A program made the position numbers and the translations under genes. Shown in pieces: positions 3,934 to 64,000 of a stretch of 64,000 nucleotides of DNA (positions are counted from its first letter, which is position 1; each line of letters starts with the position of its first letter). Source of the DNA: Rozella allomycis CSF55 (taxonomy: Eukaryota); assembly GCA_000442015.1 (NCBI GenBank), contig KE561161.1:1-64000 (forward strand), written 5' to 3'. The notes under the pieces were generated by a model. That model did not search any database. It saw nothing but the letters and a program-made list of their open reading frames with translations, and was not told the origin of the DNA.

Positions 3934-5458
3934 TTAATTTTTGAATATATTCAGAACTAGTTTCGAAAGTAGGAAAATGTAGGAGAATATAAAGCAACAA
4001 CAGCAAAATATGTAGTTGACCATTACAAAGAGTTCGTTGTACCTTTTCGGGGGTTCAAGAATCGAAACTATCACAAAATATGATGCGATGAAGAAATATG
4101 TACACTTAAGTGAAATAGGAGTGAAGTTATTACAAACTGAATTATTTTCCATAAATTGCTTTCTCGTCCCCTCTGGCTTAACGATAGCCAAATGATCTGC
4201 AGTGAAAAGTACGCTATCAAGATTTCATCTTTTACCGCCAAAGGAAATAGACTATGCGACAAAATTTTATACAATACCTGAAGAAGCATACTTGAATAAA
4301 CCAAGAAACGAAGTTCGCTTCAATTGGGTATAAAAGAGTCACAGGCAAGAGTGGCAAAAGAATTGACTTTTCATGCACTTGAAATGATAGTAAAAAAAAT
4401 GAAATGGATGTTATGCACGTCGCGTACAACAAATTGCGCGATGTCGGTCGAATGAAAACCAAGAGGCAGCAAGGCACTGTAGCCAAAAATGTAAAAAAGG
4501 CACTAAAATTAAGATTTCTTGCAATATACCTTTTATAAAGGAGGCTGTCAATTGAATAAATGTATTTCACCTTTTGAATGAGAGAATAAATACACCATAT
4601 GTTTGCAACTTTATCTTCGAATATACCTCGATGCACTGGAAACAATCTTCTAAACATTTGAAGTAAAAGATCTTTTGAAGTAATGAAAGGATAAAGCGAA
4701 ATAACAAAAGTCATTGTTACAGCAAAGGCGAGTTTCACAAAAAGAAATCTATGTCTTCCTTTGTCTTTTAGTCCATTAAATTACCGTAGACTCAAACGCA
4801 ACAAGTAAAAAAATATTGGAAGCGCAAAATACAACGACATTTGCTTAAAACATAATGACAATGAAAAGCATATCGCGCCTTTCACGTAAGCCTGTTGAGA
4901 AAAAAAGTAAATGGAAAGTAACACAAATGATAGCATTACATTATTATACTGAAAATGACCATTATCAATTAAAATAAAACATGGTTGAATTGCAATGAGG
5001 AAAATAAAATATTTCAAGTTGCTAGAAGTTACGCTGGGATGAAGTTTTGCCGCTGTTAAAAATAGCACTGGCAAGAAAAAGAAAAGGTCTATCAAAATAA
5101 CAGTTGTTCTCATAAAAAATATTAATTCTTGATCTTCCTTTCCCCATGATGTTTGTAGAGCAAACCATGATGGATTGATATAGTTGCCTCTAAATATTGC
5201 GATAAAATACATGTATTACAAGGTACCAAATATGAAGCTAACATACCCACTCAAAGGTGGATAATCAAGACCCCAATGTTCTTGAGGATTTTCGGTACTA
5301 TTCAAATACCAATCTCTGGGGGGAATGTTTATTGAAATTTCCATCCAATGTCTTTGTGCCTCAAAATCTCCAAACAACGGTGGTTTCCCAAACCCTGAAA
5401 ATCCATGTAAACTTACTAAGCACCTTAAAAACAGCCCAAAGAGAAACGCAAGTAACAT
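3934..5458 (-). CDS. ALG6: Dolichyl-P-Glc alpha-1,3-glucosyltransferase ALG6
   Basis: GDFEAQRHWMEI, WGLDYPPL, IDNGHFQYN, RLFPVHRGIFEDKVANIWC, FQVHEKSILLP; 5 short introns. Confidence 0.95.
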
Positions 5459-5505
5459 AACCGAAATTTCCAATTTTGATCAATGTCCTCCTCGAAGTTA
5501 TTTTT

Positions 5506-16350: not shown

Positions 16351-17666
16351 ATGACAAAGGATCTTAATAGTTTGCCCAAGACGAAAAGAAATTTTGTTTC
16401 CTATTTTGAAAAAATCAACAGATGTTTAGATGAGAGAAAATCTAGGGTTATGGATCTTTGTGACAAATCGAAAAGCATGTTTGTTGAAGCGTCAAAACCA
16501 AAGAAATTATTTAAATTAATGCACCATGAGCCGAATGTACATGATGATAATGATATCCCGATCCGAATTAACAAAACAGGGATGAGAGAAATAAAACCCC
16601 ATAGGCACGTTAAGGGGAAATTAAAGAGAGAGGCAGTGGATTTGAAACTTACAAATCCAATAGAGAACTTGAAATACAGAAATAATAAAGTGAATTGTGA
16701 AAACTTTTTCCCATCAAATATCAAAAGACTTCCAAAACGAACAAGGCAAACCATGTCAGCCCCAGCGTCTGGATTTCAAGTAACAAGCGATAATTGATTA
16801 AATTTAGTTTCGAGTTTTAAAAGATGAATATTTTTCTTTTCAAATGGAAAATCATCCAACGTTATCTCGAAGACCACAAACAAGTTATAGAGAATTTAAA
16901 CTACCCGAAGAAAAAGAAATTGAGAGATATCATTTCATCAACATAGTTTTTAAGGATGCGGTTAAAAAGCGAGAACAATTCAATCTTGGGCAAACTGGTC
17001 AAGCTTTTGAGACTCGATCACTGGATTCCCCTCCCATCAGTTACGAAGAGAATTCAATCTCTTTGAAGTCAACAAAGTCAAACTTTTCCATTAAATCTTT
17101 TCCATTTGAGGAGAAAAGAAAACAGATTTTTGAACAGTATTCAAAGAAAAGTCCAAAGCCGGTAGAAAAAGAAGTTGTGGCAAAGAAATACCCCAAAAAG
17201 AAGAAAAAACCATCTTTTTCAAGAAAGGCTGACAAAGTAGGACCTTCATCAATAAGTGGCGAATCAAGTAATGATCAACTGGAGCAATTCCCTGAATCCT
17301 TGGAGGCTATTCTTCAAACTTTAACATCAAAGGAAAAGTCGATCGTTAAAGAAACCTCCAGAGTTGTTCAAATACCTGAAAACGACGCACTTAAAGGCGT
17401 AAAGTTGATTGATTTGCTTAATTTAACAAATACACGCGAGATTCTAAAAGCTCGACGGTAATTAAAACATTTTGTTAATAAAGACTGTGGCGACGTTCCT
17501 CCAATACAGAAAGAGCAATGTTTTCAAAAGCATTCTTGGAAAACTTGTAAAGTTATTATTAAAGTCTAGAAATAGGAAGCAACAACAATCCGCCATTGGC
17601 GAAATACACGAGCAAGAAGAATTAGAAGAAATGCAGAAAGAAGAAAAACAAGTTACGTTCGAGTAA
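16351..17666 (+). CDS. Hypothetical basic protein (4 exons)
   Basis: ORFs joined by 26-29 nt GT-AG introns. Confidence 0.55.
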
Positions 17667-18594: not shown

Positions 18595-18675
18595 CGACAG
18601 CGACAGGATTTGAACCTGTGCGGGAAATCCCAATAGATTTCAAGTCTATCTCCTTAACCACTCGGACACGCTGTC
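18595..18675 (-). tRNA. tRNA-Ser(UGA)
   Basis: Cloverleaf with GACAGCG/CGCTGTC acceptor stem, ATAGA-CTTGAAA-TCTAT anticodon arm and long variable arm; T6 terminator follows. Confidence 0.95.
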
Positions 18676-23349: not shown

Positions 23350-24066
23350 ATGGATATTGAAAAGTTGGGAATAAGAAAATTGTCAGAGAAGCCTGTATAT
23401 TTAGCTTCTAAAAGCCCAAGGAGGATTGAACTTTTGCAAAGATTGGCTGTATTACTCATTTATATGCTTAACAAGTAGGGCTTTAATTTGGTTATCAAGC
23501 CATCGTTATTCAAAGAAAATCTTAAACACTCTGATTTCGAAACGCCGAAAGGTTATGTTCTAGCGACATGTGAGGCCAAAGCGAATGAAGTTTTAAATAG
23601 AATAGACGAGGCATTTTCATTACTTATATCTGCAGACACTATAGTTGTAATTGTTTCTATGAATAATTAAAGTCTTTAAATAGAACAATATTTGAAAAAG
23701 CTTCTGATAGAAGCATGGCAAAAACAATGTTACAAAGTCTATCAGGCAAAACTCATCAGGTTTATACAGGTACAACACATAAATCTATTTCAAAAAGCCG
23801 TTACTTTAATGTATTTTGTAGGGGAAGAGTTAAAGAAACATAGCTTTGTTGAAGAATCATCTGTGACATTCAATGTTCTGTCAGATTCAGCAATAGAAGC
23901 ATATTTGGATACTAATGAGTGGCAGGATAAAGCGGGATCATACGCAATCCAAGGAATATCGTCCTTTTTTATTGAGAAAATTAATGGTGACTTTTACAAC
24001 ATAATGGGCTTTCCTTGTTGTAGGTTTTTGAAAGAACTAACATATTTATTTAATGAACAAAAATAA
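23350..24066 (+). CDS. Maf-family nucleoside triphosphate pyrophosphatase
   Basis: LASKSPRR, ISADTIV, LSGKTHQV, DKAGSYAIQG, GDFYNIMGFP. Confidence 0.92.
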
Positions 24067-27898: not shown

Positions 27899-28630
<732 letters not shown>

Positions 28631-37174: not shown

Positions 37175-38171
37175 TTATTGTTCCTGTGCATTCATTTCAG
37201 CATGATTTATAGATTTCGCGGTTGCCTTAGTAGCTTCAATTTTGTTTTTCTTTAAAACATCCTTTTCCGCCGATTTTGATGAGTTGGGATCTAAAGACGC
37301 AGCTTTCATGATACAGTTTGTATTATATGTAGTATAATATCCAACACAAACCATTTGAGTCATGTACAGAGTTTGAGAAACCTCATTACTAGAAGTTACA
37401 GCGATGATAATTCCAGATATGATAAAATNCGTTACAGCGATGATTATTCCAGATATGATAAAATACAATGCCGCGGTCATTGAACTTTGCAAAAACTTTT
37501 TCTGCATCTTTAACCACCTATTTCCTTTGTATTTGCGTAATTTGATGTACACNAGTTACAGCGATGATAATTCCAGATATGATAAAATACAATGCCGCGG
37601 TCATTGAGCTTTGCAAAAACTTCTTTTGCATCTTTAACCACCTATTTCCTTTGTATTTGCGTAATTTGATGTACACTAAAATATTAAAAACAACGATCCC
37701 AGTTTCAATAACTGCAAGCCCAGCAGAGTCATAGTTTGTACCTTCGTAATGTATCATGCAATCAGGTAATATCACTGAAGTTGCTGCATAACCAATAACC
37801 ATGGCTCCGTAGAATACATTAATGAATATGATTATAGATTTAACAGCCCTGCCACTTGTTGGATAAGCATATTTCATTAGTGCATACAATTTTACATATT
37901 GAAGTGCATAATATCCAATAAAAGCTAAATACCAAATTATCACACCGTTTAAATACTTGACACCGCCGCAGCCCATATCTATACCATTTAAGATGAGTAT
38001 TTTGATGGTAAAATGTACCAACACAAAAATCAAAACGCCTATTTGAGCCTTTCGTCCGGGAGATTTGTCTTTTTGAATATAGAGGAATGATTCAATAAGG
38101 AATTTTATAGTTAACACTAAATATAGAGGAGCCAAAGTACGCAAGCTATCATTAAAGGCAAGGCCAGCCAT
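37175..38171 (-). CDS. Orphan 7TM-like membrane protein
   Basis: About 7 hydrophobic segments once the N-flanked duplications at 37429 and 37553 are collapsed; intronless. Confidence 0.65.
37395..37675. repeat. Tandem duplications around N37429 and N37553 (probable allelic artefact)
   Basis: About 120-nt copies differing at a few synonymous positions. Confidence 0.85.
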
Positions 38172-38297: not shown

Positions 38298-39622
38298 ATG
38301 AAATCGTTATTGTTTCTTACCCTTTTTAATTCCTTGGCTCAGAGTAGAATTTATTTCTCTGAAACATTTTCTGATAATGATGGATGGCAAAACCGTTGGA
38401 TTCAATCGACCAATGTAGATACTTATGGAAAATTCGAGAGGAAGTAATGTTATTTTAATACAGTTATCAAGCAATGGGCTTTTCCATGGTGATTATGAAG
38501 AGGCATATGGTTTAAGAACCTCTCAAGATGCAAAATTTTATGCGATAGCTTCTAAATTCAATCAAACCTTTGACAACAAGGACAAAGATCTTGTTGTTCA
38601 ATTTACTGTAAAGCATGAGCAAAACATTGATTGTGGTGGAGGTTACGCTAAGATTCTTTCATCTAAAGAAAATTTGTCAAAATTCAGCGGGGACACGACG
38701 TATTTCTTAATGTTTGGTAATGAACTCAATTGAATAAGAACAGGGCCGGATATTTGCGGAAGTTCTAGGAAAGTCCATGTGATAATAACGTACAAGGGAG
38801 AAAATAAGTTGATAAAACACGAAATAAATGCCCCTTCAGATGAATTAACTCATCAATACACCTTGGTTATTAAACCCAATCAAGTAAGAAGGTTTCTTTG
38901 CGATAATTGACTTTTAAAGTTTTGATTGATGGTGAAATCGTCCAAGAAGGGAATTTTCTGGAAAATTGGGATTTTCTCCCACCAAAGCAAATCCCAGATC
39001 CTGAAAAGAAGAAGCCATCGAATTGGGCGGACGAAAAAGAAATAATTGTAATTTGTTTTCATATATTTGAAAGGATCCTAATGACAAAAAGCCAGAAGGA
39101 TGGGACGATATACCACAAACAATTCAAGACGTGAATGCCGTTAAGCCGGAAGATTGGGATGAAGAATTAGATGTAATGAATTTCTTCTATATTGATTAGG
39201 GTGAATGGGAGCCACCTCAAATTCCGAACCCAGAATATAAAGGAGAATGGCAACCGCGACGAATCCCTAACCCTGATTACAAGGGTCCATGGGTTCAGCC
39301 AATGATTGATAATCCTGATTTTATTCCAGATGAGGAAATATATAGATTTAGTGACATGGGTGCTATTGGTTTGGATCTTTGGCAAGTCAAAAGCGGGTCC
39401 ATATTTGATAATTTTATCGTTACCGACAGTATTGAAGAGGCTCATGAATTCGGCAAAAACCACTGGGAAAAATACAAAAATGCCGAGAAAAAGGCTAAAG
39501 AGCAGCTAGATGAAGAAAATAGGAAAAAGCAAGCAGAATCGGCTCCTCAACAAGACGCATCTGAAGCAGAAGTCGGTGAAGAAATCGGCGAAGATATTAT
39601 TGATGAACATGAAGAACTTTAA
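38298..39622 (+). CDS. CALR: Calreticulin
   Basis: Signal peptide, TSQDAKFY, KHEQNIDCGGGY, MFGPDICG, P-domain repeats, GLDLWQVKSGSIFDN, C-terminal HEEL, no TM segment. Confidence 0.95.
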
Positions 39623-40324: not shown

Positions 40325-40419
40325 TGAAATATACATTGTTTAATAAATTACAATTTGCCTGGGAAAAATTATTAATATTTGTTAATTAAATATAGTTTGT
40401 TTTATAACTAACGTATTAA

Positions 40420-41022
40420 TTAATAATGATCATTGAATAGCTGCATTGTTTTCATTAAAAGCGGTCGAATTTCATTCAATTCGTGTCTAGTGATATTCGC
40501 TAACAGCAAAATTATGAATTGTATTAATTACTATAATTTCCTTGTTGGCGTGTAAATCTTGAAAACCTTTTAAAGTTTTTCTTTGTCGCACTTCTCGTAT
40601 CGCTTGAACCAACCGCTTCACAATTTCAACCGAGGGAATAGTGTCTGCACAAGTCTCTAGAAGCAATCTAGATATTTCAAAAAAGTGTTGATGTAAATTT
40701 GTATATTCTTCGGTGTTCTTTTCATTGTCCAGAATTCGCTGAAGATATTCTTGCAAAACGAGTTGAAAAAGTGAGTACCTATAGTTAAAAACTCTGGGGT
40801 GACTATATTTGCTTTCAAGGCTCGTTTCAGTTCAAGAGCAAACCAGAGTGGCACTTTGACGATGGTGTTTGCGGTAAAGGGGCCCAAAGTGACCTATTTT
40901 GGCATTAATTGTTTGGCTACTGAAAATAATTTTTTTCTTGGCGCGTTGAATAGCGGGAATATTGATATCATTTCATCCTTGGCAAAGAATTCCAGTTCTG
41001 GCGGCGAAAAAGTAGACGCCAT
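40420..41022 (-). CDS. PSF2: GINS subunit Psf2
   Basis: FSPPELEFFA, GPF..VPLWFAL, IREVRQRK, ELNEIRP; the last intron is GT-TG. Confidence 0.92.
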
Positions 41023-41060
41023 TTTTCCTGCGCCACTAGGGAAAGATTTAGTTTAAAGTG

Positions 41061-44000
41061 ATGGAGGATATGCAGGAATTGGAGGAGTTGTATAAGAGGC
41101 GTGATTTTGAAACTATAGAGATGAGGCTGTCAAAGGAATCGGTAATTGTTGTATTAAAATATGAGAAGATTTGGAAGCAGGTTTTAGAAAAGATATTGAA
41201 TAATCTTGATTATTCTTTGCTCCGAATAGTTCTGTATGGTAAAATTTGTACGAGGCCTTGATGCAGGATGTTCAACACATACACCTTTGGGCAAGAGCAG
41301 ACGTAATTCCTTGTTTGTCCAATTATTTTCCAAAAGATTCAAGCAGGTTGTATTGAATTCCGAATTGTGTAGTTTCCTATCTTTGCAATTGGAGGGTGTA
41401 AGTGAAGAGATTATAGAAACTGCTACTGATAGTTTTCTGGAGCTGTGTAGAACATTCAAGGAAAAGGATGCACTTTATTTAGACTTGATGCCTGTTGTAT
41501 TTTCGCAGGCGATGAAGTTTAAGACATTGAAGAGTCCGATTGATGAAAGCGAAAGGATTGGTGGGAATGAGTACAAGGAGAAGATTATAGAGATGATGAT
41601 TGATAATAAATGGGATGCGACTATCTCTGTCTATCTTGCAATGTTGATGAAGGATGTGCAAATATCTAATAGTTTGACTCGAAGATTGATTAATGAGCTT
41701 TTAAAGTAAAGTTGCAATTTGAAAAGGAAAGATCGTTTAGCGCGTTGAGTTTGGAAGAGTTGCCACCGTTGGTGTATCAAATGTTAATTTTAGCTAAGGG
41801 AAACAGGGCGATAGTTTTCCATCATTTATCGCAATATTTTAATAGTTTGAATGCTGTTATAGAGGAAGAGTAAGAGTAACATTGAAAGAGAAAGTAGACC
41901 GTTGATTAATGAAGAATTGTTGGAGCAGATCCAGAGTACCCTTGTAGAGCACGTGTCATTTGGAATTAAGCAAAACCAAGTGAGAGATTAGTATTGAATT
42001 AAAAGGATTTGGGGAATGAATTTTTAAAGTATGTAAAGCAAGACAAGACGAGAAACTTTAATGCGTTTAATGTGGCGATATTGTTGTCGATAGCAAAGAT
42101 TCCTCAGTTTGAAGATCAAGTAAGAAGAATTGCGTTGTTTGAAAGGTGAATGAATTGTGTAGAACGTCAGTGTTGACGATTATTAAAGACAATCAAATGG
42201 TGATTCAAAGCAGAATAATGATGAATGAAGAATCGCAGCTATTTTATGTGAACGTTGAAGAGTTGTTTGAGACTGCCGTGCGATATTCGACTGGTGGAGC
42301 TTCATCGTTGATTAATTTAGCATTTTCGCTTTTAGATTCAAATTTTTCAATCTTTAAGAATATTGATAAACCCCTGGAATGGAAATTGAATGAATTTTCA
42401 ATTAATGAAAAAAGTAGCCAACTTGGCGTTTCAATTTTATTTTTTTGTTTTAATGAACATGAATTTATTAGATTAGAAATTTTAAATCAAATTTTTATTA
42501 AAATTTCATGTAAAAATAATGTTTCATTTTATGCAATTGAATTATTTAAAAGATTAATCTCATCTTGCCCAACCGAGATGCTGGAATTCACAAAAATAGT
42601 AAAATTTTATTTTTTTTCAAGATTTGTAGATTGAAGATTTTATTTTCAAAAAGATTAAAAATTTATCATTTTGCATGATTGAAACTTTTTTTTCATGTTT
42701 AGATCCACTGATCTGTTTAGATTGTGAATTTCATGCGAATCTATTGGAATTTTCTAAAAAGATTTCCAGATCTAAAATTTTAATGGAAAGAAAAGTTTTG
42801 CTTTATTTAACATTTTCACTTTTTAGATCTTCATTAAATTCATCTTTTCAAAATTCAGAATCTTTTCGTGAATCTTTTTCAGTTGAATGTGCTGAAATTC
42901 TTTCAATCTTTTTGTATTCAAATTATGACTTTGAAGAGAAATTGTTGAATTTGATTTCTTCAAACCCACAACGCCCAAATTTGAATTTGAATTATTTTGA
43001 AATTCATTTAAAACAAAAATTTGATTCTCTCGTTCGCTTCTCTGAAAACAAATGCAAAATTGTTTGGGACAAAATCATCGATGCAAACAACCACAACATG
43101 AACATTTTGGAACCATTAGGGTTGCTTTTATTAGTTTACAGCAAAGTTCAACCAGACAAGAATTATTACAAGATTAATTTATTCGTTACTGAAATTGCAA
43201 ATATTCAATTAGAGAATATTGTTGGCCCTGAATTAAACTTTGATTCTAACAGTGACCAGGGTAAACGGAATCTTTTAATTCTTTGCTCGTTAATTCCCTT
43301 AATGGAAGCTTCTGCAGAATATTTAATAGAAAATGAAAATTCTTCAATCAAATTGTTGGAAAAGATTATCATCTTCAACGCCCTTTTAAAAGATAAACTG
43401 GCGAGCAAAAAGGCTTCTCCACTAACTTGCATTTTAAGCACAGAATTTCTCTTTAGTTTGTTAAATATTGAAATAAATAATGACCAAGTTGATAAATTAA
43501 TTTTATCGCATTTGTTGAATAGAATTCAAAGTTTAGATAAAGAATCATTGACCAGGGTCATTCATCTAGCAATGTCCAAACTAGAAAGAGAAAATTCAAA
43601 ACAAGTTATTCACTTGTTGTGTGAAATATTATCTTGTTCATGTAAACAATTACACGTGTACCACGATGAGCTTGAAAGATTGAAAGATGTGCAAATTGAA
43701 GAATTCATAACAAATAAAAGTTGTAAATTTCTGGAATTGGGATACGAAAAGGAAGTTTTTCTTTTGTTGTCAATTCCAGTCAATTTTAGTTCAAAATTTT
43801 TAAAAGGATTATTAAGAATGGAAATTAGTGATATTCCACTCGCAAAATTAATTTTAAAGAAAATTTTGAAACAGAAACACTCAGTGCTGGTGGCTGTTTG
43901 TAGAGACTTTATGGCAGAGTTGGGCCAACACGATGCTGATGCTGAAATTCCAGAAGAGAAAACATTTTCAATTGTAACTTTTAAAAATGTTCAATTCTTG

Positions 44001-44682
44001 GCTTCAATTACAATTGATTACATTAACGAACAATTAGATTTGCTGAATTGGATTCTAGAGACTTGCACGAGTAAATTTAATCTTGTTTGAACATAAAGTG
44101 GAGTACAAGGAAGATGAACAAGTTTTAGAAAATTTATTTGAAATTGTTCACAACGATTTCAACAGACTAGCCAGCGGGTTGAGTGAATTATCTTGCACGC
44201 TATTCAACGATCTTCAAACAGACCAACTAATTTCTTCAATAACAGAATTCTACAAATCTTTAACAAACATCACAGTAATTCATCTCTTCAATTAATAAGC
44301 TGAAACACCACATCAAACAGAAACGAGCATTTGAGTCTTTCAAGAAAACAATTCATTTAATTTCAGAAAAATTATCTCCATTTGTTTACGATTTAATTCC
44401 ATTCGTGCAGAATGCTAAAAGAGCAAAAAAGAAGAAAAATGATCTGGAAAAAGTATTGGAAATTTACTAATCTAAAAATAGAAACAAGGGAAAGATTTGA
44501 AAATTATTCCTGCAATGGTTTATTCAATGGAACAGTTTGAAAGATTTTTATTGAAATTGGCTGAAAAGAATCAAGATCTGTTGGCTGGGGTTAGAAAGAG
44601 TACTGCAAGGGATTTCAAATTAACTCTACAAGGAATGGAGCCCCAAAAGAGGGTGAGAAAGGAAGGTGACGAACGAAGGTGA
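41061..44682 (+). CDS. FANCI: Fanconi anemia group I protein
   Basis: LEELPPLVYQML, HEFIRLEILNQI, LEPLGLLL, IPAMVYSMEQFERFLL, STARDFKL; about 10 introns. Confidence 0.85.
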
Positions 44683-44738
44683 AAGATTAAATAAAAAGGA
44701 TTAAAAAATATTAAGATTAAATGACTAAATATTCTCTT

Positions 44739-46290
44739 TTATTGGGATTGTAAGGGTGGAAGGGAATAATGATTCTTGTAAAATAAACCACACGAATTAC
44801 AAAGCGTCTTTCATCAATTTCAATTTCTTTTACCTTTTCACCATAAGGCCCAAATCTCAACAACGGCGTCTGCTCCAACGTACACAAACAATGCTTACAT
44901 CTCCAATTAACATCAAAATACGCTAAATGCATCAAACATATTAATTATTACCAGATTTAAATGGAATAAGATTACGAATATCACCGCGTTGAACGTACGG
45001 GCGTCTCTTGGCTGGATCTACTGAATACGTGCTCTCCTTTGATCTCAATTCTAGCAAATTCTCAAAAACCTTCTTGGGAAACGTTCTATTCGTCTTTGGT
45101 GGATCTCTCAACGCCCACAATTCAACCCGCCTTCCTCTATTCAACCGCCTCTTCCTTCTAGCATCCCTTTCTCTACTCTGCTCCAGCTTTTCCAAATCCT
45201 GGTCTGTTATCTCCATCAAAGAGGGCGAAAACAAATCTTGGATATCTTCATCCCTCAACGCATGATTCACAGGCAATAGAAATGCATCCTTCAACTCTAC
45301 ATCATCAACAGTCGCATTCTCTATATCAAAATTATATCCCGCTATCAACAAACTCTTCGTATGCCAGTATATTTGCTCTCTAATAGAATGCGCAATCGCT
45401 GTTGTAAACTCTCCATTCAGCCCCAATTCAGCCGACAAAATCAACGCAAATTCTTCAGGGTCAGTGGCTGGGTTGTAGTGATTAATGTCCCACTCAAATT
45501 GGTCAATTAAACTGACAGTCCCAATAGTTATATCCAGCTTTATTATTATTCGCAACTCATTCACACTCTCATGGTCAGGCTTCAAATAGTTGCTGAAATC
45601 CACAATCTGCTCTCTAATCGATTTGGATATCGGCGGCGAAAACAAACTGGTTGGTAAATCAAAATCTTGGCATATTATTTCGGCAAATACTTCAGGAGTT
45701 ACATTCTTCTCTTGAAGATGCCATGTAAATGTATCCCTATACTTTATTCCTTCAAACTCCAAATCTATCCTAATCGGTACTAGAATATCATGCGAATCCG
45801 ACGGAACATGCGAATAAACGATAGGCTTTTTGTAATCCCATCCAAATTCACTTCTCTGTCGCGAAAACTCTTGATGACTATCAGTCACTCTCTTTTTATT
45901 CCGCGCCAACTCTGTAAATTGTTCTTGGATTCTCTTTTTCTGTTCTTCACTCAATTTCAAATATTCCTTTTCTTTTTCAGTTAGTCCATCAGTCGAAACT
46001 ACATCCGCCTTAATTACCGGCATGCATCTTATATCTTCTACTTCTATTTGCACAGTCTTCATTCCTTCCAGCTTTGGCAATATATCTTGCGCTCTAAGAA
46101 AAATAGAATTCACAGGAAGCACTTGGTTATTCTGCAAAACTAATTCCTGTTCTTCGTTGGACGGCGTCTTGGAATACAACATACTGTATTTATTCAAAAA
46201 TGTCCCCTGATCACTTTGAAATAGTGCAGCAACTTCTGAAGCCAAGACATACTCGCTATCGTGGAAAATAAATCTCTTGATTCGCACCAT
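44739..46290 (-). CDS. SNF5: SNF5/SMARCB1 homolog with N-terminal winged-helix-like domain and C-terminal GATA-type finger
   Basis: LVPIRIDLE..RDTFTW, DQFEWDI, LGLNGEFTTAIAHSIREQ; spliced tail CKHC-x20-CNSC. Confidence 0.9.
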
Positions 46291-46342
46291 GAAATTTGCC
46301 AAACTGGACTAGGAAAATTCAGCCAGGGTCTCCGTATTTGTA

Positions 46343-52835: not shown

Positions 52836-52907
52836 TTCCGCATCGGGGAATCGAACCCCGGCCTTTGCGGTGAAAGCGCAAAATCCTAGCCACTAGACCA
52901 ATGCGGA
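52836..52907 (-). tRNA. tRNA-Glu(UUC)
   Basis: TCCGCAT/ATGCGGA acceptor stem, TTGCG-CTTTCAC-CGCAA anticodon arm, GGTTCGATTCC T-arm. Confidence 0.95.
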
Positions 52908-54511: not shown

Positions 54512-55455
54512 TTATTGACTAGGCTGTATATTCGATTTCGGTTTTCTGGGAATAGGTGGTGCGTATTGATATCCCATTGATGGATTTGCCATTGATGAAT
54601 TTGCATTTATAGCCATATTTGGAAACTGCATCGAATTAGGATGAATGTTGCCTATGGCAGGATTACTGACAAACCCTTGATTACTAGGAATATATTGTTG
54701 ATATGGGATGTGCTGATTCTGCAACTGTGAAGGGGGTGGTTGAGCTGTATAGGGTTGAATCGGTAAGTTTAAGGTAGTTTGATTTTCTAAAGGCATATCT
54801 TTCAAAGGAGCAGATTCAGCTGCCGTTAAATTTTTATCGATAACTTCTGTTTGTTCGATTTCAGGAATAAATTTTTCTATTCATATTGCACAAATTACAT
54901 ACTTATANCAGAACTTACATACTTATATCTTCGGAGCTTAATGGGTGGATGGTATTTCCTAGATTTTTCGGTGGTTCTTTTTCCTCTTGTCCTGACAAAG
55001 ATTGAATGTTTGATAACTCACGAATGAAGTAATCAGCCAAAAATCGTATTTTTTCTAATGAGGGAATTAGGGTGTTAATTGATTGTTGGTCTTGCAAGTC
55101 AGATTTACTTGAATCTGTTGAGTAAATATATAATGTTTACCTTTCACGATTATATTTAATTTGTTCATAGTTAACAGTGCATGCTGTACGTCGTTGTCGT
55201 CTGTCAATAGAATTAAATCGCCATCACTAAAAAAGAGGGCTCAGATATTACCTTCATCTATATAATTTAACTGGTAATTTTCTGGATTATCAGATAAATC
55301 TCTTTTGAATAAACGTTGCATAATGAAGCAAAGTTCATTGTAGGTCTATTTTGTCTGAAATTAGTGGTTACCAAATCCTTATTACATAAAGAGACACGCC
55401 TAAATGTGGAGCCAAATCGTGCTTTGATAGTTACCATACAATCTCCTCCCTGCAT
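54512..55455 (-). CDS. TFG: TFG-like protein (PB1 + coiled coil + P/Q-rich tail)
   Basis: Spliced IKARFGSTFRRVSLCNKDLTYNELCFIMQRLF...YIDEDGDLI matches the TFG PB1 domain as I recall it; one GT-TG intron. Confidence 0.8.
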
Positions 55456-57697: not shown

Positions 57698-57771
57698 GCT
57701 CCCATAGCTCAGTTGGTTAGAGCGTCGTGCTAATAACGCGAAGGCCGCAGGTTCGACCCCTGCTGGGAGCA
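57698..57771 (+). tRNA. tRNA-Ile(AAU)
   Basis: GCTCCCA/TGGGAGC acceptor stem, TCGTG-CTAATAA-CGCGA anticodon arm, T5 terminator. Confidence 0.95.
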
Positions 57772-63131: not shown

Positions 63132-64000
63132 ATGAACTTTATTGACGACATCGTAATATCGTCTCCAGACAATATTATTTATGGCAGAAAGAGCGAAATA
63201 TTTATTAAAGTCAAATTTAAAAAGGAATTTGCCCAGCCATCTATAGAAAACTGTTTGTCGTTGGTCATAAACTCTGTTAGCATAACGTTGAATAAGCTTC
63301 CCTTAATATACGACATAACATCTTTAATGTCATTTAGCTATAAAAACTACAAAATCTCTTTTGAAAATGTGAAAGTTGACGAAAATGAACATTGTGTAAT
63401 TTTTCCAGTGATTTTAAGGATATGTAAGCAAACACTCACTATGTTTGATATCAGATCCATCATTGTCAAGTTATTATGGTTCACTTGTTAATATAAATTT
63501 TCAATTGTCGAAGGATGAAAAGTCTGAAACAGCCCTTGAAAATGAACTCAAGCATGCAAGCAAAAATAATATGATAATGAAAATATTAGAATCCAATGAT
63601 TGTAACAGATGATTTATTTATGTGAGAAAGATTTGTCGTTATCAATAAAAGAGAAAAATAGGCGGCCTAGCGTGAATCCCAACGAAAACATTGGGAACTC
63701 ACTTTTTAAAAGGATTATATCTCAAAACATATCCATATCAGCTCCATTTTATGCCCAATTTTACTTTAACAAAGTAGGCATTGATTCGGTCATAGCCACA
63801 ATTGTTATCAATCACAATCCAAAAGTCCAATTGCCGATAGTAATAAAGAGTTTAGACTTGAAAATATTAAATATTAAAAGAAAAAATATTGATTCCGGTA
63901 AAAAGACGACTGATGATTGTTTTCTCATTTCTAAAATAGAAGTATGTTTTTATGCACCATTCGACAAGGAAATCACACCTTTTGTATTAGATAAGTGTGA
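63132..64000 (+). CDS. Hypothetical multi-exon protein (3' end uncertain)
   Basis: ORF followed by an intron-like GTAAGC...CAG and further coding-like sequence. Confidence 0.4.

Follow-up and report, generated by a model that had tools for sequence, protein, structure and literature searches.

PSF2 lies on the minus strand at 40420-41022 of the window, i.e., the 64,000-nt stretch of Rozella allomycis CSF55 DNA (contig KE561161.1) analyzed here, and its four exons join to a coding sequence of 519 nt specifying 172 residues. Exon 1 (40921..41022) starts with the ATG at 41022-41020, comprises 34 codons and matches positions 1-29 of the Pfam PSF2_N profile (PF25005; E 2.6e-6). The profile runs on across the junction (29 to 31) left by removal of intron 1 (40894..40920; 27 nt, GT-AG, GTAG...ATAG) and covers positions 31-60 in exon 2 (40779..40893; E 6.7e-9). 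Intron 2 (40750..40778; 29 nt, GT-AG, GTAC...CAAG) skips a TG at its position 25 and uses the AG at 29, and is followed by exon 3 (40532..40749), which ends in ...ANKEII and was assigned by the Sld5 helical domain (PF05916; E 4.8e-9) and by alignment with homologues. Exon 4 (40420..40503) encodes LANITRHELNEIRPLLMKTMQLFNDHY, followed by the TAA stop.

Between exons 3 and 4, PSF2 carries a 28-nt GT..TG intron candidate at 40504..40531 (GTAATT...GCTG), which on the minus strand stands between the codons gaa att ata and tta gcg aat as GTAATTAATACAATTCATAATTTTGCTG; the G of its GT occupies 40531 and that of its TG 40504. A shorter option of 25 nt (40507-40531) ends in TG too and is equally in frame. 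Past the intron lies a TAG (40500..40502), the AG of which is the end of a 32-nt GT-AG intron that is out of frame. The original prediction had identified the gene as PSF2, which the order of PSF2_N on exons 1 and 2 and Sld5 on exon 3 bears out, and had placed a 28-nt GT-TG intron at 40531-40504 with a TAG 4 nt downstream, which proved correct to the base.

PSF2 adjoins a FANCI orthologue (41061-44700, plus strand), which carries Pfam FANCI_S1, HD1, S2 and S4 on consecutive exons in a reduced parasite genome, and a neighboring ORF with an SNF5 domain is found at 44944-46308 (minus strand), its product being 100% identical to a protein assigned by NCBI to Rozella allomycis CSF55. Three tRNA genes were located in the window with Rfam, at 18595-18675 (-), 52836-52907 (-) and 57698-57771 (+).

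Reading frame and homology across the putative third PSF2 intron

Removing intron 3 restores the conserved reading frame of PSF2. Read from 40503, behind the TG acceptor at 28 nt, exon 4 gives LANITRHELNEIRPLLMKTMQLFNDHY and the stop; read from 40499, behind the AG, it gives RISLDTN and a stop, which agrees with the earlier claim that splicing at the TAG (32 nt) causes a frameshift, here terminated after seven codons. With the intron retained, translation would continue as VINTIHNFAVSEYH and stop after 14 additional codons. An in-frame GT-AG intron of 22-34 nt does not exist at the junction of exons 3 and 4 according to our junction solver.

When exon 3 was compared by HMMER with a set of 1.84 billion representative proteins, 21 matches were obtained, all of them at most 49% identical. 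No Rozella protein carrying PSF2 exon 3 was found in two large protein searches, and public protein sets probably lack PSF2. We aligned the TG-spliced product with 11 of the 21 exon 3 homologues, and found that ...KGFQDLHANKEII followed by LANITRHELNEIRP... aligns over the junction, the sole gap being one residue, located five residues upstream, and that a conserved C-terminal motif after the junction is common to exon 4 and eight of the 11 homologues. Scored against a profile built from nine homologues, the in-frame forms reached 179.7 bits (28 nt GT..TG), 178.9 bits (25 nt GT..TG) and 179.4 bits (a 28-nt TT..AG form with shifted boundaries), compared with 156.2 bits for the AG-spliced and 156.6 bits for the intron-retained form, exon 4 in the TG frame adding about 23 bits. 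The profile separates the 25-nt from the 28-nt intron by 0.8 bits only, and the acceptor predicted for PSF2 from frame and homology is the TG at 28 or the TG at 25. Of the proposed 28-nt TG intron, the part that stood is that the conserved C-terminus is preserved only by a TG end in combination with the canonical donor; its exact length did not stand alone, as 25 nt fits equally.

Splicing at the AG would produce either a truncated Psf2, consisting of 145 residues plus RISLDTN, or the message of a decaying pseudogene with a leftover exon 4. In favor of this reading, AG is the near-universal acceptor and is just 4 nt off, and no annotated Rozella protein with exon 3 came to light. However, exon 4 gains its bits and keeps the conserved motif in the TG frame, and signs of a pseudogene were looked for in PSF2 and none were found, exons 1-3 being open and introns 1 and 2 canonical. 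In addition, the same pattern appears in two further conserved genes described below. Taken with the DNA contigs discussed below, these observations make use of the AG unlikely. With regard to the earlier claim that the TG must out-compete the AG, a minority of TG-spliced PSF2 mRNA could suffice.

The donor and the length of intron 3 are those of its host. Among 39 high-confidence, hand-picked GT-AG introns, all measure 26-30 nt (having been picked from a search range of 18-45 nt only), 37 start with GTA and 25 with GTAA, so that the donor GTAATT is typical, and 28 nt lies within the host range and is the modal length. The U2-type feature in which intron 3 differs is its end, both in-frame ends, at 25 and at 28, being TG instead of AG. 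These properties bear on a second alternative, in which both boundaries are shifted by 4 nt to give a 28-nt TT..AG intron at 40527-40500 and the product ...EIIVTNITR.... This form is in frame and its 179.4 bits equal those of the TG form within noise, yet it gives up a perfect GTAATT donor in a set where 37 of 39 introns begin with GTA, and a shift of this type fails elsewhere, yielding a TT..AG intron at a non-donor-like site in calreticulin and AG..AG in a TFG-like gene. We regard it as highly improbable.

The bases of PSF2 intron 3 are identical in DNA contigs from two studies, referred to as X1 and X2. Record 15 of X2 spans 40363-40672 with 0 different letters and 0 gaps relative to the window, and record 8 of X1 spans 40433-42000 with 12 different letters, of which none is listed in 40500-40531 and the nearest is at 40547. 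The assembly may have been built from one of the two contig runs, but X1 is no mere copy of the window, given the differences it shows elsewhere. Inside the PSF2 coding sequence, X1 and the window differ at four positions, three of them synonymous and one changing Leu to Ile, a small sample that speaks against a pseudogene. Overall, the differences between X1 and the window amount to about 0.8% of positions (12 in 1568 nt) and X2 is identical over the PSF2 piece, a contrast indicative of variation between alleles or strains of the species. An RNA run (X9) yielded only pieces of 35-54 nt on the cyclophilin gene, all less than 95% alike; being so short and divergent, they indicate RNA from other organisms and say nothing on expression. 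RNA-seq data from Allomyces infected with Rozella allomycis do exist, being acknowledged in PMC13393502.

A correction of the bases by reads had been named beforehand as an outcome that would overturn the TG reading, and the contigs of both DNA studies show the same bases as the assembly. An assembly or sequencing error, with true DNA that is canonical or free of the frame problem, might be suspected in a draft assembly with two N's elsewhere in the window. But the contigs from two studies agree over the intron, and an indel within the intron cannot alter exon phase. Moreover, in calreticulin the nearest AG sits inside conserved coding sequence. We consider an error scarcely probable at all. 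The two single N's are located at 37553 and near 1858, and the former lies beside an intron donor, where it disturbs the gene models.

Two further candidate GT..TG introns and their frequency in the window

In calreticulin (38298-39622, plus strand), the exons around intron 3 match positions 123-174 and 175-221 of the Pfam Calreticulin profile and are separated by a 26-nt GT..TG sequence at 38884..38909, the order being ...KPNQ, then GTAAGAAGGTTTCTTTGCGATAATTG, then TFKVLIDGE.... Here the junction solver found no in-frame GT-AG intron, and with the TG 0 residues are left over for a profile gap of 0. The next AG (38919) falls within a conserved coding stretch and would give TTT TGA. With the 26-nt GT..TG intron, the model has 396 residues and aligns over its full length with homologues. 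For a comparison of this intron, no close Rozella relative was found in metagenome contigs, in which 80 loci were kept, all at most 56% identical.

The public Rozella calreticulin (P0143, 370 residues) instead jumps from KPNQ to QIPDPEKK via a 104-nt GT-AG intron (38884-38987), and by this skips 26 codons at 38910..38987, encoding TFKVLIDGEIVQEGNFLENWDFLPPK. These 26 residues align with all six other calreticulins compared, contain the conserved WDFLPP block and are absent in P0143 alone. An equivalent solution exists for PSF2, where a 91-nt intron from the GT at 40531 to the AG at 40441 is canonical and in frame and would produce a Psf2 without LANITRHELNEIRPLLMKTMQ, deleting 21 conserved residues including the motif. 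That both genes have in-frame canonical options at the price of conserved residues (an intron of 91 nt in PSF2 and one of 104 nt in calreticulin) counts against the TG reading, and annotators took this type of solution for calreticulin. In addition, real longer introns occur in the window, namely a 71-nt GT-AG intron in a Rho-type GTPase gene (28327-28397, minus strand) and one of about 54 nt in a Maf gene (23647-23700, plus strand), so length alone does not decide against the 91-nt and 104-nt alternatives. However, the stretch skipped in PSF2 is open in the right frame and bears a conserved Psf2 motif, and the stretch skipped in calreticulin aligns with all homologues compared, conservation that is not expected of an intron. 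For these reasons we hold a 91-nt intron in PSF2 to be very unlikely.

The third case is found in a TFG-like gene with a PB1 domain, in which a 27-nt GT..TG intron candidate at 55225..55251 (minus strand), GTAATATCTGAGCCCTCTTTTTTAGTG, joins ...NYIDE to GDLILLTDDNDVQHAL via a split Asp codon. The joined exons give an acidic D-E-D-G-D core, which we take to be typical of PB1. The junction is in frame only with the TG at 27 (or at 30), the AG at position 25 being out of frame with a stop after four codons. The downstream exon matches positions 51-73 of the Pfam PB1 profile (E 0.01 and 9e-4 in two runs) and has no match in the PDB search; the upstream exon has its best PDB match, a weak one (E 1.1), in residues 37-58 of the TFG protein. 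This intron also has a textbook pyrimidine tract and an AG 2 nt ahead of the putative TG, and so good an AG site argues against the TG reading here. The homology suggesting a TG acceptor is thus weaker at the TFG-like intron than at calreticulin or PSF2.

To place the three introns in a census of the window, 238 ORFs with 28 or more codons, picked by coding score, were run against Pfam, and junctions were solved where homology anchors both sides. In the strict set, in which the same Pfam family is present on both flanks, 25 of 26 junctions were GT-AG and one, that of calreticulin, could be solved as GT..TG only; this single TG junction in 26 is a point against the TG reading. Five junctions whose flanks belong to different families or are anchored by homology of another kind were added (PSF2 exons 2 to 3, PSF2 exons 3 to 4, the TFG-like gene and two in phosphoglucomutase), resulting in a wider set of 31 anchored junctions, 28 with a GT-AG solution and three with GT..TG only. 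Because both additional TG junctions had been sought out deliberately, three in 31 is an upper-leaning figure. At all three non-AG junctions the end fixed by homology is TG, for which we estimate a chance of roughly 0.06 per position (T near 0.33, G near 0.17), and other non-AG end types with homology support were looked for in the window and none were found. PSF2, calreticulin and the TFG-like PB1 gene, at least three conserved genes in 64 kb, would hence appear to need GT..TG, and the recurrence of this need within the window makes it an organism-level property instead of a quirk of one essential gene.

A gene finder, our own dynamic-programming script, predicts approximately 100 introns in the window. 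At lengths of 26-30 nt, TG was its commonest non-AG type, with three of seven picks at a penalty of -4 and three of six at -5. Allowing one non-AG dinucleotide at a time under a mild penalty of -2, it picked TG three times, AT seven times and AA five times, and we rejected the gene finder as proof of TG specificity because TG is not singled out without homology. A version with lengths up to 200 nt fused genes and was discarded. One GT..TG candidate (5452-5478) was dropped, since its upstream ORF has no Pfam match and runs antisense to an ALG6/ALG8 gene. The non-AG picks at 63396, 61007, 13685, 4291, 28357 and 37550 were rejected as lacking homology support or being otherwise explained, the explanations among them including a 71-nt GT-AG intron, a 22-nt GT-AG solution and an N in the sequence. 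One of the three TG picks at the penalties of -4 and -5, in FANCI (44275-44302, plus strand), is ambiguous: the AG at 25 nt and the TG at 28 nt are both in frame, and with both forms holding the frame it is a possible 3-nt tandem acceptor. At 17458-17485 (plus strand), GTAATTAAAACATTTTGTTAATAAAG has an AG at 26 nt, the frame of which stays open for just 21 codons, and the long downstream ORF needs 25 nt (AA end) or 28 nt (AC end); neither flank is supported by Pfam.

Intron length and the choice of the 3' end

The narrow length range of the hand-picked introns recurs in the gene models, 87 of 102 introns measuring 26-30 nt when the gene finder was restricted to AG ends and to a range of 22-36 nt. 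Within the 39 high-confidence introns, an internal AG ending at positions 12-25 is skipped in nine, and a TG at 25-26 is bypassed for an AG 2-4 nt later in seven, PSF2 intron 2 among them. The three TG introns end at 28 (PSF2), 26 (calreticulin) and 27 nt (TFG-like gene), and the AG ends are at 32, 36 and 25 nt, respectively. None of the three has an AG ending at positions 26-30; the AG follows the TG by 4 nt in PSF2 and by 10 nt in calreticulin, and precedes it by 2 nt in the TFG-like gene.

These positions fit a simple putative rule, by which the AG is used if one lies within 26-30 nt and the TG otherwise, though three cases cannot prove it. Short introns of Rozella would each be recognized as a whole, at a length of 26-30 nt; where an AG ends within this range, it would be used, and where there is none the second catalytic step would take a TG located there. 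The AG a few bases off (4, 10 or -2 nt) may aid early recognition, as proposed for human TG-AG tandems, and joining at this nearby AG would shift the frame of the transcripts, which would presumably then be degraded. Such a length ruler, like TG splicing itself and the efficiency it would have, we infer from sequence, reading frames, homology over the junctions and the agreement of contigs.

On the same grounds, we consider it quite probable that the 28 nt at 40531-40504 (possibly 25) are a real spliceosomal intron of PSF2 with TG as the productive 3' site, and that it is one of a small recurrent class. TG itself is likely the productive acceptor, and the three introns would probably be tiny introns of the U2 type that take a TG beside an AG.

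Relation to known introns and meaning for Rozella

U12-type introns tolerate non-AG ends and are marked by a long donor box and a branch box. In contrast, the donor GTAATT of PSF2 intron 3 is not the long U12 box, and inspection of its sequence revealed neither an extended donor box nor a U12-like branch box; the Rozella TG introns are not of the U12 type. Ciliate introns of about 25 nt are an ultra-short system that is not known to depart from the AG, whereas the Rozella trio would end in TG. What the ultra-short systems, those of ciliates and of the Rozella S23 gene, share with the present introns is a very narrow length class, pointing to recognition of the intron as a whole. For the Rozella S23 gene, introns of about 30 nt have been noted, in a remark that does not address acceptors (PMC6349667), and another paper gives a Rozella intron density of 2.5 introns per kb.

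The closest known parallel in sequence is human. Szafranski et al. (2007, Genome Biol 8:R154; PMC2374985) confirmed TG 3' sites near an AG (at most 28 nt away) in 36 human genes, and proposed that the AG serves intron definition and the first step of splicing and that the TG is chosen at the second step; TG-AG tandem acceptors are also mentioned in a further paper (PMC4176328). Human tandems and the Rozella introns have in common a canonical GT donor, a TG acceptor and a close AG, which lies within 28 nt of the TG at all three Rozella introns. However, the human TG is, according to PMC2374985, always an alternative and very rare site that never acts as the only acceptor, and mutation of an AG to TG switches on other AGs, which stands against our reading, whereas in Rozella TG would be the sole site giving the conserved protein. 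The Rozella cases also make up three of 31 anchored junctions of one window, in introns of 26-28 nt.

The same dinucleotide pair is reported in fungi. In a transcript-based annotation of Ganoderma lingzhi, GT-TG accounts for 22 junctions or 0.024% of all, and novel GT-TG junctions in meiosis of fission yeast are regarded by their authors as probably aberrant. The fraction of GT..TG in the Rozella window is about 100 times that of Ganoderma, with predicted junctions being set against transcript-based ones, and the Rozella sites are needed for conserved domains. A description of TG acceptors in Rozella was not found in the literature searched, the coverage of which was without the Curr Biol 2013 genome paper and supplements.

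The AG at the 3' end is among the most invariant signals of eukaryotic genes, and in human TG is only its minor partner. A lineage with TG as the sole productive site in conserved genes would offer a natural setting in which to study what the second catalytic step needs and how ultra-short introns get measured. On the practical side, gene finders limited to GT-AG fail at PSF2 and calreticulin, and current gene catalogues would miss such splicing. Studies of reductive evolution in Microsporidia use Rozella as their standard outgroup, and errors of annotation may therefore be misread as loss of genes or domains.

The odds are, in our estimate, even that productive splicing at a 3' TG is routine in Rozella allomycis and concerns a few percent of the introns of 26-30 nt. 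If so, public Rozella gene sets would be systematically wrong at these introns, with PSF2 missing and calreticulin shortened, and the 3' end would be set mainly by its distance from the 5' end or the branch site, the terminal G being required and the A at -2 merely preferred, so that Rozella would present a naturally relaxed dependence on AG.
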